Shown piece after piece: positions 4,566 through 12,227 of a stretch of DNA of 50,824 nucleotides. The DNA is from an uncultured bacterium. Its GTDB lineage: Bacteria > Zixibacteria > MSB-5A5 > JAABVY01 > JAHJOQ01. The DNA lies in the NCBI GenBank assembly GCA_965369655.1, contig CBDUQR010000019.1:1-50824 (forward strand), written 5' to 3'. The position numbers and the translations under genes were made by a program. Numbering within the stretch: position 1 is the stretch's first letter; every line of letters begins with the position of its first letter. The notes under the pieces were generated by a model. That model was not told the DNA's origin, made no database searches, and was given only the letters and a program-made list of their open reading frames with translations.

Positions 4566-5834
4566 CTACTCCGGTAATTCCGACTTGTTCTGAAGATATG
4601 TCAGGCTGCCGGCGCGCACAATCGAGTACTTGCCGTATTTGTTTCTGATCTTCTCGACAGCATCACCAGCAACACTTTTTCGATTCATATCGTTGTCAGA
4701 AAACAGCGATGGCTGATCCGCAGGGCATGATTTGCTGAGATTGCTGACCCGCACTCCAAGCAGCCGAATCTTCCTGCTCGCTACAAGCTCTCTCGGGAGA
4801 AGACCCCGGGCGATTTTGTAGATGAGTTCGACATCATCTGTCGGCACACTCACAGAACGCGCCCTCGTGATCGTCTTAAAATCAGCGAACCTCACACGCA
4901 GCGTGATAGTCCCGGCGGTAAACCGGTGTTTTTTCATCCGCGAGACAACCTTATCGGTGAGATGAAGAATCACCGAGTCGAGCAGCCGGAAATCTGCTGA
5001 GTCATTCTCGAATGTCTTCTCGTGCGAGATCGATTTCGGATCGGGTTTATCAATGTGAGCCAGCACGGGAGAATCGTCGAGGCCGTTGGCTATTCTCTTG
5101 AGGTGCTCGCCATTCGAACCGAATTCCCTCTTGAGTAGATCCGCTGGCATCCGGGCGAGCTGCCCGATTCTGAACACTCCGAGCGAGTTGAGCCTCGCGG
5201 TAGTCACAGGACCGACGCCGTACAATTTGGAGACATCAAGTGGAAAGAACTTTTCCTCAAGCTCGTAAGGCCAGATTGTGGTGAGGCCATCAGGTTTCTC
5301 GAGGGCGGAAGCGACCTTTGCAAGATGCTTGTTCGCCGACACTCCAATCGAGCATATCAGATGCAGCCGATTCCTGATCTCTCTCTTGAAATCAACGGCC
5401 ACTTCGACTGGATCGGGATGGATTTTCAGCGAATCGGTGATGTCAAGATATGCTTCATCGATTGATGTAACCTCGACAAATGGAGTGAATTCACAGAATA
5501 TCTCCCTGATCTTTTCAGCATAATGCGAGTAAGCACCCATCGAACCGGCGACGACAGTTGCGGTCGGACAGAGTTCGAGCGCCTTGCCCATCGCCATTCC
5601 CGATCTGACGCCGAAAGCTCTCGCCTCGTAGGAGCAGGTTGCCACAACCCCCCTGCGTGAGGCGGACGGGCCGACCAGAAGCGGCTTACCGCGAAGCTCA
5701 GGGCGATGGAGCTGTTCGACCTGGGCATAAAACGCATCCATGTCGACATGCAGGATCGCTCTTTCCGGTCGAAACTTATTGTCCGAGTAGAGCTTCCTGT
5801 CGTGCATCGTCCCGCGGCCGCCGAGTTTGAACAT
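4566..5834 (-). CDS. dinB: DNA polymerase IV (Y family); start uncertain (5834 or 5807)
   Basis: ILHVDMDAFYA, SYEAR, SIDEAYLD, KPDG motifs; QPSLF clamp-binding motif. Confidence 0.95.
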   Translation of the reverse strand: MFKLGGRGTMHDRKLYSDNKFRPERAILHVDMDAFYAQVEQLHRPELRGKPLLVGPSASRRGVVATCSYEARAFGVRSGMAMGKALELCPTATVVAGSMGAYSHYAEKIREIFCEFTPFVEVTSIDEAYLDITDSLKIHPDPVEVAVDFKREIRNRLHLICSIGVSANKHLAKVASALEKPDGLTTIWPYELEEKFFPLDVSKLYGVGPVTTARLNSLGVFRIGQLARMPADLLKREFGSNGEHLKRIANGLDDSPVLAHIDKPDPKSISHEKTFENDSADFRLLDSVILHLTDKVVSRMKKHRFTAGTITLRVRFADFKTITRARSVSVPTDDVELIYKIARGLLPRELVASRKIRLLGVRVSNLSKSCPADQPSLFSDNDMNRKSVAGDAVEKIRNKYGKYSIVRAGSLTYLQNKSELPE

Positions 5835-5946
5835 TATCCAAATGCGCCTTTCCTGCCGATCACTTTCGGCCACAGACAATATCTCGACGCAATTATACTT
5901 CAAGTACAACACGAACTGCGCGCCATAACAGACTGTCCTGCAATTG

Positions 5947-6224: not shown

Positions 6225-6839
6225 CTACATTCTTCTGAGCAACCCGACTACTTTGCCCGCAATATAGAATCGCGGTGTGTCATGCTCGACGATGATCGGT
6301 CCGAAAGCATCATTCTCCGGTTCGAGCCTGACATGGTCCGCTTCCGGATAGAATCTCTTCACGGTCGCCTCATCTCCTATCACAGCTACGACAATGTCAC
6401 CCTTTTCGGCTGTGCCCTGTTTCCGAACGACGACAAAATCGCCGTCTGCGATACCGGCCCCGACCATGCTCTTCCCCACGACGCGGAGCGTGAAAGTCTC
6501 ACCGGATGGGACGAACGAGGTATCGACTGCAATGCTGCCTTCGATATTCTCATCGGCCAGCAGCGGTGCACCTGCCGGGACAGATCCGACCAGCGGAAGC
6601 TGCCGCACTGTGGTAAGCATACCCTCTGCGAGCTCAATCCCCCGGGAAACAAGCGGTGTTTTCCTGATGTAGCCTTTCTTTATAAGGGCGCTCAGGATCG
6701 AGCGAACACCGTTGGTCGACCTGATTGAAAACCGCTCTCCGATCTCGCGAATCGTGGGCGGAGCGCCCTTCTCACGAATACTCCGTGATATGAAATCGAA
6801 TATGTGTCTCTGCCGGTCTGTCAGCTTTGCCTTTGTCAT
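6225..6839 (-). CDS. lexA: SOS repressor LexA
   Basis: wHTH LT.RQ...PPTIREI; VPAG cleavage site; catalytic Ser (GKSM) and Lys (TVKR). Confidence 0.97.
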   Translation of the reverse strand: MTKAKLTDRQRHIFDFISRSIREKGAPPTIREIGERFSIRSTNGVRSILSALIKKGYIRKTPLVSRGIELAEGMLTTVRQLPLVGSVPAGAPLLADENIEGSIAVDTSFVPSGETFTLRVVGKSMVGAGIADGDFVVVRKQGTAEKGDIVVAVIGDEATVKRFYPEADHVRLEPENDAFGPIIVEHDTPRFYIAGKVVGLLRRM

Positions 6840-7095: not shown

Positions 7096-7261
7096 GAGAA
7101 AAAACATGTCTGTGAATCATTTTCTTACGACCTGCGGTCGATACAACCATCGAAATCAATCTTAGCTATGGACATAAGTGATTTTGGACTTATATTTAAC
7201 TATTCTGATTGTCGATTGTATAAGTACTAATTGACTCCTCAATGGAGACACAAGAACCGGC

Positions 7262-8011
7262 ATGATAAAGCAAATTACTGCAACACTCGGATTGACAGCG
7301 CTGATCCTCCTGACTGCGGCGACAGGAGACTGTCTCGCACGCTATGGAGGCCGGGCGGTCATGCGGGAGTCGGGCTTCGACTTCGGCAAGACGCCGCAGG
7401 AATCGAAGGTGACGAAGAAGTTCTTCATCGTAAACGAAGGGACTGATACCCTCCGAATCATCGATATCAAACCCGGGTGAGGATGCACCAAGGCTCCAAT
7501 CTCAAAGGAGCTGATCGCTGTCGGCGACAGCGCGGAAATCGAACTGATCCTGGGTACAGGGAGAAAGAAAAACTTGTACAGCAAGTCGGCGAAGATAATC
7601 ACGAGCGACCTGCTCAACCGCACGATGTCATATAAAGTCAAGGCTTACATAGTTCCTGAGAAGTCCCCGACCTCTCCGGTGGTCTGTTTGCCGAGAAAGC
7701 TCAATCTGACGACCGACGATATTGGCACGCCGCAGAAAATCACCATCAAGAGCGTGACTGTCGATTCGCTCGACCTGGAAATCGTCTGGTTTGACGACGA
7801 TTATCTTGATGTGAAGCTGCCGAAATCTCGTATCGGCCCGGGTGAGTCGATCGACGTAATTGTCGAGATCAGGAAAGACCGGGAAAAGGAGATATTCGCC
7901 AAGTCGTTTACGATCAGGACAGGAGATAAAGAAGGGACCAGATTCACAGTCCCTGTGAAAGTTACGCCCGCGAAAAGAGTCGGAGGCAAGTCAAGATCGG
8001 GAGGGGGATGA
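7262..8011 (+). CDS. Exported DUF1573-like tandem Ig-fold protein, candidate selenoprotein (249 aa; UGA 7478-7480 = residue 73)
   Basis: ORFs 7262-7480 and 7574-8011 are one frame broken only by TGA in IKPG*GCTKAP; FDFG motif; signal peptide. Confidence 0.85.
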
Positions 8012-8102
8012 TTCCGATCGCCATCGGAATGACTGCCCCGCACATACATTGATCGAAATCAGGCAGACTGCTGAATAGACTTGACATGATGGAGGTGGCA
8101 CA

Positions 8103-8897
8103 TTGAAACGCTACGTGACACTATTTTATCTTACGCTGTTTCTAACAACGGTGGCTTCTGCCGGAACGCCGGTCGAACCTAAGACCGTGTCCGAGACGAC
8201 TGGTGATTACACCGCAGGGAGGCTTTTCTTCCCAGAACTCGAATTCGATTTCGGCTATGTTCCACAGAACGGGTCCGTGAGCCATTCGTTCTGGCTCCTC
8301 AACAAGGGGACCGACACCCTCGAAATCATCCAGGTCAAACCCGGGTGAGGCTGCACTAAAGCGCCTCTGACGAAGAGGCTGATCGCTGTCGGTGACAGCG
8401 CAGCAATTGAACTGGTTTTTTCGACAGGCAAACGCCGTGGCAGACAGAACAAATCAGCCACTGTGATAACGAGCGACATTACGAAGGGAAATACCAAGCT
8501 GAGGCTTTTCGCAGACGTCTATCCTATGGATGAACCGGTTGCCCCGGTTGTCATAGAGCCGCCTGTCATAGAGTTTGACAAAGACAAAGTAAAAGGGCAA
8601 CATACTATTACTGTAAAGAGTGTGTCCGATGTTCCACTCACTCCAAAACTGGTTGCAGGTCCTGAAACCGACTTCATCATCGATCACAGCGGTAAGCCGA
8701 TCAAGCCGGGCGCCGCGACTGGGATGACCGTGAGGCTGGCGGACGACTACGAACCGCGAATCATCAAGAAATCGTTCACGTTTGAGCTCGATGATGCGAA
8801 GCGGACGCGATTCACGATACCTGTTCGGACGGTGAAACCAAAGACGAACCCCCTGCAGCCCTCCAGCCCGGCTGCGAGAAAAACGGGAGGCATGTAG
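8103..8897 (+). CDS. Exported DUF1573-like protein, candidate selenoprotein (264 aa; UGA 8346-8348 = residue 82)
   Basis: Continuous frame VKPG*GCTKAPLTKRLIAVGDSA; GGAGG RBS; signal peptide. Confidence 0.85.
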
Positions 8898-8926
8898 ACG
8901 AACACGTCCACGAATAATCAAAGACC

Positions 8927-8959
8927 TTGACATTCACGATCAATCTGGTATGTTATAAT
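8927..8959 (+). promoter_or_regulatory. Putative sigma70 promoter for the third DUF1573-like gene
   Basis: TTGACA 8927-8932; extended -10 TGTTATAAT 8951-8959 (or TATGTT 8949-8954). Confidence 0.55.
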
Positions 8960-9018
8960 ATTAATTTGTACTTGCATCCTATGCTAAAGGTATTTTCACA
9001 TATAGGAGTCGGCGAAGT

Positions 9019-9939
9019 ATGAAAAGAGTAGTATTATTGGCTTTACTTGTAGTCGTGGCCTTTGTGGCATTCTCTGTCCTTCACAACCGGGCAATATCTG
9101 ATCCGTCTAATCTGGAGAACAAGATAGCGTCGACGTCATCGGCCAAGAGTTCGACTACTCAGCCGAGGGGAAAAGCCGAGGAAGAGAGTCCGTATGTCAA
9201 CGGCAAAGCAAACTTTCTCGAGAAAGCGTTCGACTTTGGTTACGCCCCGACGAACAGCACGGTCTATCACCCTTTCTACGTCATCAATGTCGGGTCCGAC
9301 ACGCTCGACATTGAAAAAGTCAGGCCTGGCTGAGGCTGCACACAGGCGCCGCTTGATAAGCGGTACCTCGCTGTCGGTGACAGCGCACAGATTGGAATAA
9401 GCCTCAGGGTCAGCAGGTCTGCCAGGCATTTCACGAAATCACCACGGGTGATCACCAGCGATCCTGAGAACAAGCAGACTTCGCTGAAACTGTCCGTGGA
9501 CGCCGTAGCTGCGTTCGATACCACTATGCCCCTGACGATAATACCGGAGAGAATCGGCATTCCTCCTGAGAGGAAAACCGACTGGTTCCGTCTGGCTGTG
9601 AAGAACATATCGAATCAGTCGCTTTCGCCGGAAGCGATTTTCGTTCCGGACGACATCGTAGATATCGAATTCCCCGGCACGATCGAGCCAGGCGAAGAAG
9701 CTGCGATCCTTCTGAAGGTTAGAGACGAATTCAAATGGAAGAATCATAAGACATCCTTTACGTTCGCGATGTCCGACGAGAATTCTACGAGGTTCACGAT
9801 CCCGATCGAAATCGGCACTTTCATCAAATCAAAAGCAAAACCGCCGAAGAAACCGACATCGGCTTCATCGACGCCTGCAGAGCAGGAAGGCAAGAAACCG
9901 ATTCGTCCGACAGGCTCAAAGGGGAACGGATCGAAATAG
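9019..9939 (+). CDS. Exported DUF1573-like protein, candidate selenoprotein (306 aa; UGA 9331-9333 = residue 105)
   Basis: Continuous frame VRPG*GCTQAPLDKRYLAVGDSA; AGGAG RBS; signal peptide. Confidence 0.85.
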
Positions 9940-9967
9940 ACGTACAGGCATATATCGAGTATCGAGA

Positions 9968-9995
9968 CCGCCCTGATCTGGGCGGTTTTCGTTTT
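9968..9995 (+). terminator. Intrinsic terminator after the DUF1573-like cluster
   Basis: ACCGCCC-tgatct-GGGCGGT followed by TTTCGTTTT. Confidence 0.75.
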
Positions 9996-10067
9996 AGGGC
10001 AGGATCATCAGCAAAAACCACAGATTCCGCTTTCAAATCAGCCTTCAGTATACTATAAATTCATACG

Positions 10068-10946
10068 ATGATGTTACGCAGAGCATATACTACGGCTAAG
10101 GGATTTCTATCGCATTATTTTGGAGGATTGTATCGAAATGCCGGAGAGCATCATGTGTTTCTCTTCGCGGGCGGTCTCTCCTTCTCTCTCCTGCTCTGCA
10201 TCCTGCCTCTGGTATTGATCGTTTTTTCTATCATCGGGCTTCTGCTGGAGAAGACAACTGTCTCGACTGAGATTTCGCTGTTCATACATAACCTGATTCC
10301 GTATGAGACCCACGCTGACTATGTCGAGCAGGCGGTCCTGTCCAGGGTAGAGGAGTTCACGCTCTTCAAAAGCATCGCAGGACTTCTCGGCATGGTCGGG
10401 ATTCTCTTTGCCGCCAGCGGCCTGTTCAGCAGCATGAGGACAGTGCTGAACACGGTGTTTAAGATCAGCAGCACTCAGTCGGTCTATGTGAGCAAGCTTC
10501 GTGACATTGGATTAGTGCTGATAGTCGTTGTTTACTTCCTCCTTTCGACGACCCTGCTGCCATTGCTCTCGATATTCGAGGAGATGGCCGGCAGGACCGA
10601 GTCACTGAGCATGTTTGACCTGGCTTCGTTCGCCGATCTTGTGCTTGAAATACTCTCGGTAGTGCTGATCTTTGCCGTTTTCTACACGCTCTACTATCTT
10701 GTGCCGCAGCAGAGGATGTCGAAGCGGGTTGTGTTCATCAGCGCATTATGGTCATCGCTGTTGTGGAAACTGGCCGAGAGAGGATTCGAGTATTACATCA
10801 CGAGTGTTGCGACGCTTACACGCGTATATGGCGCGTATTCGCTTGTGATTGTTATCGCGCTCTGGATCTACTACACATCGATCGTGTTCATACTCGGCGC
10901 AGAGATCGGACAGTTGTACAAGGAACGACGTGTTCGCAAGGCGTAA
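10068..10946 (+). CDS. YihY/virulence factor BrkB family membrane protein
   Basis: Multi-TM; A..LSF..LL...P and YG.Y..VI...LWIY...I.ILGAE motifs. Confidence 0.9.
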   Translation: MMLRRAYTTAKGFLSHYFGGLYRNAGEHHVFLFAGGLSFSLLLCILPLVLIVFSIIGLLLEKTTVSTEISLFIHNLIPYETHADYVEQAVLSRVEEFTLFKSIAGLLGMVGILFAASGLFSSMRTVLNTVFKISSTQSVYVSKLRDIGLVLIVVVYFLLSTTLLPLLSIFEEMAGRTESLSMFDLASFADLVLEILSVVLIFAVFYTLYYLVPQQRMSKRVVFISALWSSLLWKLAERGFEYYITSVATLTRVYGAYSLVIVIALWIYYTSIVFILGAEIGQLYKERRVRKA

Positions 10947-11189: not shown

Positions 11190-12227
11190 TTAACGATCGT
11201 CGCGGCTCCAGCGTCCACTGATACATACGATCTCTGGGTAGTTCCTGCACCACTCCAGTATTTTGTCTCGCTCGATCAAGTCTAACTCATGAGGCATGTG
11301 GGCTCGGAATTCTTTCTTGGCATTACTCGATACATACGAACTTGTAGCGAGGATTACTTGTGACGCTTTTCTAATCTGTCGGGTACCGATGAGTGCGCGG
11401 ATTTTCGCAGGCGGAACCTTATAAGGGGGCGAATAGCATTTCGCCTCTATGAGGTGGCGAGTCTCTGTAAGTCCGAGCTTTCGCAGAGCAATAATATCAT
11501 ACCCGCCATCGCGCGTTCTGGCTGTCAACTCAACTTCAAACCCAAAGGAAGCAAACATCTCAGCGATCAGTTCCTCGAACTTTCGCGAGTTCATCTGGTG
11601 AAGTAAGGCTGGATTTGCGACGATTGCTTTCATAATCTCGTCCCAGACAGCGGAGACTCTTACATCAATCCTCCCTTCTGTCGGAGCATCCGCTTGCGAC
11701 ACAGACACCCAACTCAACAGCCAGCATATTGCTTCAGCCATCTGACCTACTCCAAAACCTTTTTCGTCAAGTACAGGTGTCCCCGTTAAGTGAGTAAAAA
11801 ACGCTTCAAACTGCGACATCCCAAGTCTATTGAGTGCGCGATTTACATCCTCTTTGGACGTCAATCGCATCTTAAGATCATCAGGTAAGTCAGAACGAAC
11901 AACTCTTGATCTCCCTGGAACAGCAGCCGTCAGTTGGCCTTTTGGACCCCAATAGAGAATTGGTACTGCTGGAATGCTATGGATTGCGGGTGATCGAATA
12001 TCGATGACTATGCCATGCAACTCCTCATTGGATTCCTCAAGAACAACCTGAAACAATCCAATGTCTGAGACTCTTCTCAATTCGGTCCCGGGCGGAATCA
12101 TGTAATTGCTGACCGCATCCCCGATCAATTTCCATATGTGATCTGGGGGATTAACGACAGCCAGGAGATACCGAGTAGAAGTATCACCAACCTTGAGATC
12201 GCCGGTAGAATCGTGCATCGTGGACAT
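11190..12227 (-). CDS. Protein with C-terminal Mrr-like (type IV) restriction endonuclease domain
   Basis: FEELIAEMF..GF.VELT..TRDGGYDIIA...IEAK catalytic motif; start uncertain. Confidence 0.8.
   Translation of the reverse strand: MSTMHDSTGDLKVGDTSTRYLLAVVNPPDHIWKLIGDAVSNYMIPPGTELRRVSDIGLFQVVLEESNEELHGIVIDIRSPAIHSIPAVPILYWGPKGQLTAAVPGRSRVVRSDLPDDLKMRLTSKEDVNRALNRLGMSQFEAFFTHLTGTPVLDEKGFGVGQMAEAICWLLSWVSVSQADAPTEGRIDVRVSAVWDEIMKAIVANPALLHQMNSRKFEELIAEMFASFGFEVELTARTRDGGYDIIALRKLGLTETRHLIEAKCYSPPYKVPPAKIRALIGTRQIRKASQVILATSSYVSSNAKKEFRAHMPHELDLIERDKILEWCRNYPEIVCISGRWSRDDR

Follow-up and report, generated by a model that had tools for sequence, protein, structure and literature searches.

A probable two-hairpin selenocysteine insertion element in three tandem DUF1573 genes of an uncultured bacterium

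Bacterial selenoprotein genes have largely been found with a model of the selenocysteine insertion sequence (SECIS) that has one hairpin and a fixed spacing window. As given in PMC13188914, the consensus comprises an apical loop of 3–9 nucleotides (nt), an upper stem of 4–16 base pairs (bp), a minimum free energy (MFE) of −7.5 kcal/mol or lower, a spacing of 16–37 nt between UGA and apical loop, and a loop of the pattern N1-G-[G/U]-N-N2 in which N1 and N2 are paired. The conserved loop G typically lies about 20 nt downstream of the UGA (PMC4605307), and the stem at the site of SelB binding has 6–8 bp (PMC13188914, PMC4605307). The first of these sources, a 2026 review, notes that a subset of the SECIS elements of bacteria does not fit the consensus and points to ‘distinct classes’, and describes none of them (PMC13188914). 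Here we analyse a stretch of 50,824 nt from an uncultured bacterium of the Zixibacteria (contig CBDUQR010000019.1 of assembly GCA_965369655.1), referred to as the window, in which three tandem genes carry one in-frame UGA apiece, each followed by two adjacent RNA hairpins. The approximately 55 nt after each UGA probably constitute a bipartite bacterial SECIS that would direct insertion of selenocysteine (Sec) into three paralogous exported DUF1573 proteins.

The protein family itself is already known. OS_HP2 is represented by two sequences in Table 2 of PMC1976440, and the DUF1573 selenoprotein family (pfam07610) appears with the motif UxC in PMC2398784 and is tabulated with the motif UGC in PMC9312934 and PMC13188914. 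The legend of Figure 5 in PMC1976440 (2007) refers to SECIS drawings for five of six new families, and OS_HP2 is not among the five. The open full-text literature, which leaves subscription journals and supplements outside the search, yielded no description of a two-hairpin bacterial SECIS.

All three genes lie on the plus strand. Gene 1 (7262–8011) encodes, with TGA translated as U, an exported DUF1573 selenoprotein of 249 amino acids with Sec at position 73; gene 2 (8103–8897) starts with TTG and encodes 264 amino acids with U82; and gene 3 (9019–9939) encodes 306 amino acids with U105. Translation and homologue search place the Sec codons at 7478–7480, 8346–8348 and 9331–9333. Each protein has an N-terminal signal-like segment and the motif PG-U-G-C-T, and PF07610 (DUF1573) extends across each UGA (E = 5.6e-19, 2.7e-21 and 5.1e-15 for genes 1, 2 and 3) with scores of 68.4, 75.8 and 55.7 bits, above the Pfam cut-off of 26.1. 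The nearest NCBIfam model is NF041425, ‘OS_HP2 family (seleno)protein’, with 60.4, 70.5 and 66.9 bits; all three proteins fall short of its curated cut-off of 100 bits and, by these scores, are kin of the curated subfamily, yet outside it. They share with the OS_HP2/DUF1573 family (PF07610; NF041425; Zhang & Gladyshev 2007/2008) the domain, a U-G-C at the C-G-C site and export, but form a subfamily of their own, which has two domains and carries AVGDS where the family has PPGGEG. Among relatives, 35 TGA and 18 TGY sites fall in one alignment column with U aligned to Cys, so that the UGA occupies the family's Cys position. Because gene 1 terminates at a genuine TGA, the same codon is also an ordinary stop in this genome.

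RNAfold predicts both hairpins after all three UGA codons. Hairpin 1 begins at +13, +15 and +15 in genes 1–3 and differs in sequence each time: in gene 1 GGCUCC and GGAGCU enclose a 9-nt loop (7492–7512, core arms 7493–7497 and 7507–7511), in gene 2 it reads GCCUCU-GACGA-AGAGGC (8363–8379, arms 8363–8368 and 8374–8379), and in gene 3 a core of GCCGCUU-GAU-AAGCGGU (9348–9364, arms 9348–9354 and 9358–9364) is lengthened by three outer pairs to span 9344–9368. Hairpin 2 reads CGCUGUC-GGC-GACAGCG in gene 1 (7516–7532) and CGCUGUC-GGU-GACAGCG in genes 2 (8384–8400) and 3 (9369–9385), and its GG begins at +43 in all three. The core coordinates of both hairpins, the starts of hairpin 1 and the +43 offset had been listed in an earlier reading of the window from sequence only, and all were correct when checked. 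The same reading had pointed out, again rightly, that hairpin 2 encodes AVGDS, where the second Ig-like domains have an I.PG[EA] motif, which reads IGPGES, IKPGAA and IEPGEE in genes 1–3. The 17-mer CGCTGTCGGYGACAGCG has exact matches at these three sites only in the genome of 2.99 Mb, and a covariance model of the element returns the same three sites only. Rfam matches in the window that reach the gathering score are tRNAs only, the best match within 7200–10000 having an E-value of 0.2.

The shared +43 offset is explained by paralogy, so a comparison with chance is beside the point. What has to be tested is whether conservation goes further than the protein code requires and whether the element is confined to Sec genes, and it withstood both tests. 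For the first we compared each gene with 300 synonymous versions, codons being drawn according to the usage of this genome, and took as the criterion that no more than 5% of the versions be equally stable. The hairpin-1 windows have MFEs of −8.4, −10.5 and −13.0 kcal/mol in genes 1–3 (the recodings of gene 1 average −4.4 kcal/mol), and the hairpin-2 window has −9.7 kcal/mol in each. Recodings were as stable as the natural sequence in 33, 4 and 6 of 300 cases for hairpin 1, and in 0, 1 and 2 of 300 for hairpin 2.

When set against the published consensus, the element agrees in most respects and departs from it in one. It is a stem-loop structure in frame, directly 3′ of a Sec-UGA and within the coding region, as is the canonical bacterial SECIS (bSECISearch consensus; Escherichia coli fdhF type). 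Hairpin 2, with 7 bp and a loop of 3 nt (5 nt if the closing C-G pair opens), has the 6–8 bp stem and the small G-G/U loop closed by a pair that are described for that type (PMC13188914, PMC4605307), and C-GGY-G in all three genes puts a G in the first two loop positions. Hairpin 1 has 5–7 bp and loops of 3–9 nt, with a loop G in genes 2 and 3 and not in gene 1. In genes 1–3 both hairpins fold at less than −7.5 kcal/mol. The departure is in the spacing, and the sequence-only reading had noted that the known bacterial stem usually lies closer: 42 nt intervene between UGA and the loop of hairpin 2 in every gene, outside the published 16–37 nt (PMC13188914). Hairpin 1, by comparison, would satisfy that range, its loops starting from +18 to +22. 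Across the family members considered below, the G-loop hairpin begins 31–36 nt after UGA, unlike the canonical start at about 11 nt, and its loop G is at +39 to +43 as against a typical 20 nt and a model limit of 37. There is no single long stem from UGA to loop; the stretch between them is taken up by a hairpin of its own that folds independently.

The genome (2.99 Mb in 100 contigs, the window being contig C19) has the setting of a canonical system. A tRNA-Sec with anticodon TCA was found at 74 bits, SelA, SelB and SelD are all encoded, and selC, selA and selB are clustered on contig C17, which together make up the full selC-selA-selB-selD set. A de novo scan for selenoproteins, based on codon-usage scores and crude (1383, 154 and 124 candidates), gave as convincing genes beyond those of the window only a peroxiredoxin pair and one thioredoxin-like gene; further selenoproteins may have been missed by it. 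The two identical peroxiredoxin genes, on C33, match AhpC-TSA (E = 2.8e-36) with U at the peroxidatic Cys, and their SECIS has 12 bp in its stem and, at +20, a GGUC loop; its apical CGGU resembles hairpin 2. The thioredoxin-like gene on C1 (184749–185921; locus L302, 50–1222) encodes an exported Thioredoxin_2 protein with UxxC (U48) and a TPR tail; its SECIS is a 5-bp stem with a CGUGA loop from +24, the first G being at +25. As these genes have ordinary single-hairpin SECIS elements, the same SelB must read canonical signals as well. The earlier suggestion of a lineage-specific architecture does not survive this comparison, with loop G at +20 and +25 in the same genome; the layout belongs instead to the DUF1573/OS_HP2 family, as shown by the 100 of 108 metagenomic members, among the matches listed, that have it.

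Several observations on these other genes stand beside the main argument. The peroxiredoxin pair lies on the minus strand of C33 (TGA at plus coordinates 11696–11698 and 10613–10615, locus L303), 1083 bp apart; the two copies reflect a tandem duplication or else a repeat introduced by assembly. Behind the peroxiredoxin SECIS, at about +39 to +56, comes a second hairpin, ACUCCAG-AAGC-UUGGAGU. The thioredoxin-like gene is probably cut at its UGA by gene callers.

For the second test we turned to Sec and Cys relatives. When 41 genomes were searched at the protein level, 40 proved to have homologues, many of the rows with one TGA and many with none, and 30 loci (L012–L041) were fetched, which contain the 35 TGA and 18 TGY sites. 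Hairpin 2, taken as at least 6 contiguous pairs with a GGN loop, is present in 32 of 35 Sec genes and in 1 of 18 Cys genes. The mean best fold of the hairpin-1 window is −9.4 kcal/mol in Sec genes against −3.5 kcal/mol in Cys genes, with 33/35 and 4/18, respectively, at −5 kcal/mol or below. The recoding test used a slightly different Cys set, without L030:778 and L035:766 (removed by a context filter; neither has hairpins in the fold comparison) and with L094:1815 and L025:810 added. Recodings were beaten by hairpin 1 in 22/39 Sec versus 0/18 Cys genes, by hairpin 2 in 33/39 versus 2/18, and by the window containing both in 33/39 versus 1/18. For the Ala of the stem, 37 of 39 Sec genes use GCT, a codon whose share in the genome is 0.20. 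Position 14 is Val in 32 of 39 Sec forms and Pro in 10 of 18 Cys forms, an amino-acid change in a conserved protein motif that the RNA signal appears to force. The hairpins are thus not kept equally in TGY forms, and the sequence-only reading was borne out in taking the element for a recoding signal tied to UGA and under constraint at the RNA level.

In a quick maximum-likelihood tree of 57 proteins, from which the hairpin-coded residues were excluded, at least 11 Sec/Cys changes are required. Among seven independent Sec/Cys pairs, hairpin 2 tracks Sec in 5.4 on average and never does the opposite, while hairpin 1 tracks Sec in 4.8 and does the opposite in 0.1. One Cys clade displays stages of decay: L023:849–926 has hairpin 2 intact, and L022:2719–2796, L026:864–941 and L027:842–919 keep most of the stem with loops AAT, GAC and GAT rather than GGC. 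This looks like relaxation following a change from Sec to Cys.

Two further relatives may be mentioned here. The sole Cys paralogue in the genome (C6:69056–69787; locus L304, 157–888) has the motif AACGCTSTPLDKPNVAPGDTS and no hairpin 2, the equivalent stretch forming only a mismatched stem with a CCC loop. A Sec gene of the same subfamily, L036:1948–2025 (minus strand, genome G018), has APGES in place of AVGDS. Hairpin 2 is missing from it at +36 to +52, and UCCAC-GGUC-GUGGA is found at +49 to +62 instead; the GGUC loop, at +54, lies behind a structured stretch of 33 nt, and 54 − 33 = 21, a single case that may be due to chance.

Covariation was assessed in an alignment of 39 Sec rows (A1), with GG at columns 46–47 in all 39. 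For hairpin 2, 90.1% of cells are paired, and two-sided change is seen in three of seven pairs: the outer pair is C-G in 14, U-A in 13 and A-U in 1, and the inner pair G-C in 34, A-U in 2 and C-G in 1. Its covariation score was reached by none of 500 shuffles, controls slid along the alignment were all lower, and the top two column pairs by mutual information in the whole alignment are pairs of hairpin 2. Hairpin 1, in one fixed register, is paired in 71.4% of cells with two-sided change in 3 of 6 pairs. The covariance model R1 kept the codon register, and hairpin 1 of type A, the window's own AVGDS subfamily, was therefore judged by fold energies. A three-way junction closed by UGC after the UGA and GCR after hairpin 2, another proposal of the sequence-only reading, was tried and rejected: GCTGC/GCAGC does exist in gene 2 (8350–8354 and 8400–8404), but the junction is not conserved, with only 50.6% of cells paired and 32/39, 22/39 and 21/39 cells unpaired in three of its four pairs. 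Nor did mutual information, computed for every pair of columns, reveal a long-range helix.

The layout extends beyond the subfamily of the window. Other DUF1573 Sec subfamilies of the same class have the same plan with different sequences; in proteins of about 400 amino acids with the motif ‘GS-UGCTAAVLT..DIPPGGEG’, a covarying hairpin 1 is followed by UUCCCC-CGGGY-GGGGAA. For a broader view, metagenomes were scanned with TGAGGNTGCAC, a gap of 22–28 nt and then CCNCCNGGNGGNGA, a pattern from which hairpin 1 is absent. At least 120 loci were returned; among the matches listed, to which all counts in this paragraph refer, 115 were not too close to the end of a contig and 111 sequences were distinct, and dropping L201, L265 and L298 (out of family or frameshifted) left 108 members. 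These PPGG[ED] Sec genes represent the types other than A. Hairpin 2 is present in 105, hairpin 1 with at least 4 bp in 102 and both in 100, with 73 distinct hairpin-1 stems. The start of hairpin 1 varies from +8 to +15 and its end from +25 to +34, a linker of 0–7 nt leads to hairpin 2, and the first GG of the hairpin-2 loop is at +40 (63 genes), +42 (34), +39 (2) or +43 (1). Hairpin 1 averages −10.0 kcal/mol against −4.7 kcal/mol when recoded (z = −2.19), with 67 of 108 genes at 5% or less; two-sided change is seen in 7 of 7 pairs in one set (70 rows) and 5 of 7 in another (37 rows), and none of 500 shuffles scored as high. Hairpin 2 is paired in 93.9% and 97.3% of cells in these types. Third codon positions of hairpin 2 have an entropy of 0.26–0.75 bits where paired and 1.1–1.8 bits in loop or bulge, with one exception: the loop G at a synonymous Pro site, where CCG occurs in 36 of 37 genes (0.18 bits). 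The entropy, like the recoding test, indicates constraint on synonymous sites.

A separate scan of contigs with CCNGGNTGAGGNTGCAC gave mostly chance matches in high-GC genomes. By eye, from the peptides, 7 of 120 stretches among the matches listed contain real DUF1573 genes (L074, L094, L117, L131, L135, L142 and L146), and the same element is found in the Candidatus Zixiibacteriota sequences L094 and L117. Subfamily B (‘UGCTTS.R.GIVIPPG’, 8 genes) has a different arrangement, with a single hairpin, GGAAU-AGUU-AUUCC, whose loop is at +30 to +33. The spacers before it fold to between 0 and −4 kcal/mol in all eight, without a stable hairpin 1.

Taken with the Sec machinery of the genome, these results make it very probable that the element is a functional SECIS, and, judged by sequence, it is the subfamily version of a family-wide bipartite SECIS. 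We consider hairpin 2 the likely SelB site: with its stem of 6–7 bp and its GGY loop closed by C-G it would be recognised by SelB, and the published loop pattern, the 6–8 bp stem and the invariant GG suggest as much. For hairpin 1 we lean towards the role of a geometric spacer. Free in sequence, conserved in pairing and located 11–15 nt after UGA, it would remain folded, outside the ribosome, when the A site holds the UGA, as expected from the extent of the ribosomal mRNA channel. By looping out about 17–25 nt it could bring the foot of hairpin 2 near the usual starting point of a SECIS hairpin, and the loop G back to a through-space position of roughly 20–21 nt. We propose that the signal lies so far downstream because only the conserved Pro-Gly turn of the domain can encode a G-loop hairpin; in the AVGDS subfamily this turn, mostly PPGGEG in the family, would have been rewritten to AVGDS for the sake of the GCUGUC/GACAGC stem. 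Subtracting the length of hairpin 1 from the GG position leaves 21.6 ± 2.9 (n = 100, among the matches listed) and, in type A, 24.8 ± 4.5 (n = 26). This effective distance is near the published 20 nt or so and near +20 (peroxiredoxin) and +25 (thioredoxin-like) in this genome, which suggests a spacer, as does subfamily B, where the loop is at +30 to +33 and hairpin 1 is missing. Whether this amounts to a distinct and widespread SECIS class, in which the SelB hairpin is shifted downstream by about 20 nt and the geometry is restored by an obligatory helper hairpin that loops out, we regard as evenly balanced.

Several points weigh against a bipartite SECIS of this kind. SelB binding and readthrough are deduced from sequence. 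As single-sequence folds, the hairpins of the window are weak against dinucleotide shuffles (z = −0.71, −1.85 and −1.48), and the effective distance varies, from 16 to 29 among the matches listed and from 15 to 32 in type A. Related sequences in the comparisons are not independent, and the independent Sec/Cys pairs provide few contrasts (median p of about 0.06), hence low power. Consensus folding, which the sequence-only reading had named as a check, bore it out in part: RNAalifold with default settings on all 39 rows gave neither hairpin, its only pairs being invariant, non-covarying G-C pairs close to the UGA; hairpin 2 emerged only with RIBOSUM scoring or after removal of the three most divergent rows; hairpin 1 never became a consensus because its register shifts by 1–3 nt between genes. 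The metagenome pattern required CCNCCNGGNGGNGA and so favoured hairpin 2 in advance. In the PPGGEG types hairpin 2 has two-sided covariation in 0 of 8 and 0 of 6 pairs and stands only modestly above its recodings (z = −1.28; 30/108), both among the matches listed; a modest gain in stability is expected there because PPGG is self-complementary by codon make-up. A Cys control for these types could not be assembled, as the TGC pattern occurred in 0 of 285 genomes of the phylum and in none of the loci examined.

The spacing also speaks for an alternative in which hairpin 1 is the real SECIS, bound by SelB, and hairpin 2 an accessory that serves as a second docking site, causes pausing or stabilises the fold. 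Hairpin 1 is at the ordinary distance, starting 11–15 nt after UGA with its loop at about +18 to +26, inside the 16–37 nt rule, and in genes 1–3 it folds at less than −7.5 kcal/mol. Its loop starts with G in 24 of 37 type-A cases, genes 2 and 3 included (and in 9 of 100 of other types, among the matches listed), so that a standard tool could call it a SECIS on the strength of G loop and canonical distance. Yet the hairpin-1 loops have no conserved base, being often UUCG-like in the PPGGEG types and AAUCUCAAA in gene 1, and the invariant GG sits in hairpin 2, including the G kept at its synonymous site. The sharpest separator of Sec and Cys genes is hairpin 2 as well. We therefore regard a SelB-binding hairpin 1 as improbable.

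A second alternative, about as unlikely, keeps hairpin 2 as the SECIS and makes hairpin 1 a separate stimulator that would hinder termination or slow the ribosome near the UGA. The analogy is with the eukaryotic selenocysteine redefinition element (SRE), a hairpin beside the UGA of SEPN1, and with viral stimulators of stop-codon readthrough, where a second helix likewise lies near a recoded UGA and acts together with a distant SECIS in the 3′ untranslated region or with none. A stable hairpin 8–15 nt after UGA, with conserved pairing and free sequence, is suitably placed for contact with the mRNA entrance. Unlike in SEPN1, both helices here are adjacent and in coding sequence, and would depend on SelB. 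Subfamily B, with its G-loop at ordinary distance, has no such hairpin in any of its 8 genes, which argues for spacing and not for a general stimulator role; in the thioredoxin-like gene no helper precedes the G-loop hairpin, which comes first after UGA, and the second hairpin of the peroxiredoxin gene lies after its SECIS. Stimulator and spacer roles are not, however, mutually exclusive.

A third alternative, scarcely credible, is that the hairpins have no role in recoding and arise from protein sequence, biased codon usage, gene conversion between the tandem paralogues or a DNA palindrome such as an operator. Genes 1–3 are indeed paralogues in tandem, hairpin 2 forms a perfect inverted repeat in the DNA, and recoded PPGG windows, self-complementary by their codons, still average −6.8 kcal/mol (among the matches listed). 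But the element persists across 15 families of a class, where the proteins are no more than 35–45% identical, is lost in Cys homologues, even those that retain AVGDS with other codons, beats synonymous recodings and covaries.

If the bipartite SECIS with hairpin 1 as spacer is correct, SelB and the ribosome would gauge distance through space and not by counting nucleotides, coding constraints such as the Pro-Gly turn would set where a SECIS can sit, and tools that search 16–37 nt would misplace or miss such elements, possibly in other protein families too. In the locus of the window and about 150 relatives a second architecture takes concrete form, with clear covariation and with Sec and Cys forms as a natural control. 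The two-hairpin layout accounts for the cutting of these genes at the UGA by gene callers and can serve as a template for looser SECIS searches, and the genes form a natural system in which to ask about the reach of SelB and its geometry from the mRNA entrance.

Some minor observations complete the description. The subfamily B loci are L162–L170 (genomes G013, G022, G027, G031, G035 and G038), and in some members the UGA is itself part of a stem, as in UGAGGUUG/CAACCUCA of L163. Elsewhere in the genome of the window, at C47:11779 on the plus strand, an in-frame TGA lies within a frame that we take to be aspartase/fumarase-like from its GSSIMPGKVNP signature; the frame is also broken upstream, and a pseudogene and a sequencing error are among the possible explanations. 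Upstream of gene 1, two open reading frames on the minus strand resemble, by eye and from translation only, a Y-family DNA polymerase (4566–5912) and a LexA-type repressor (6225–6839).

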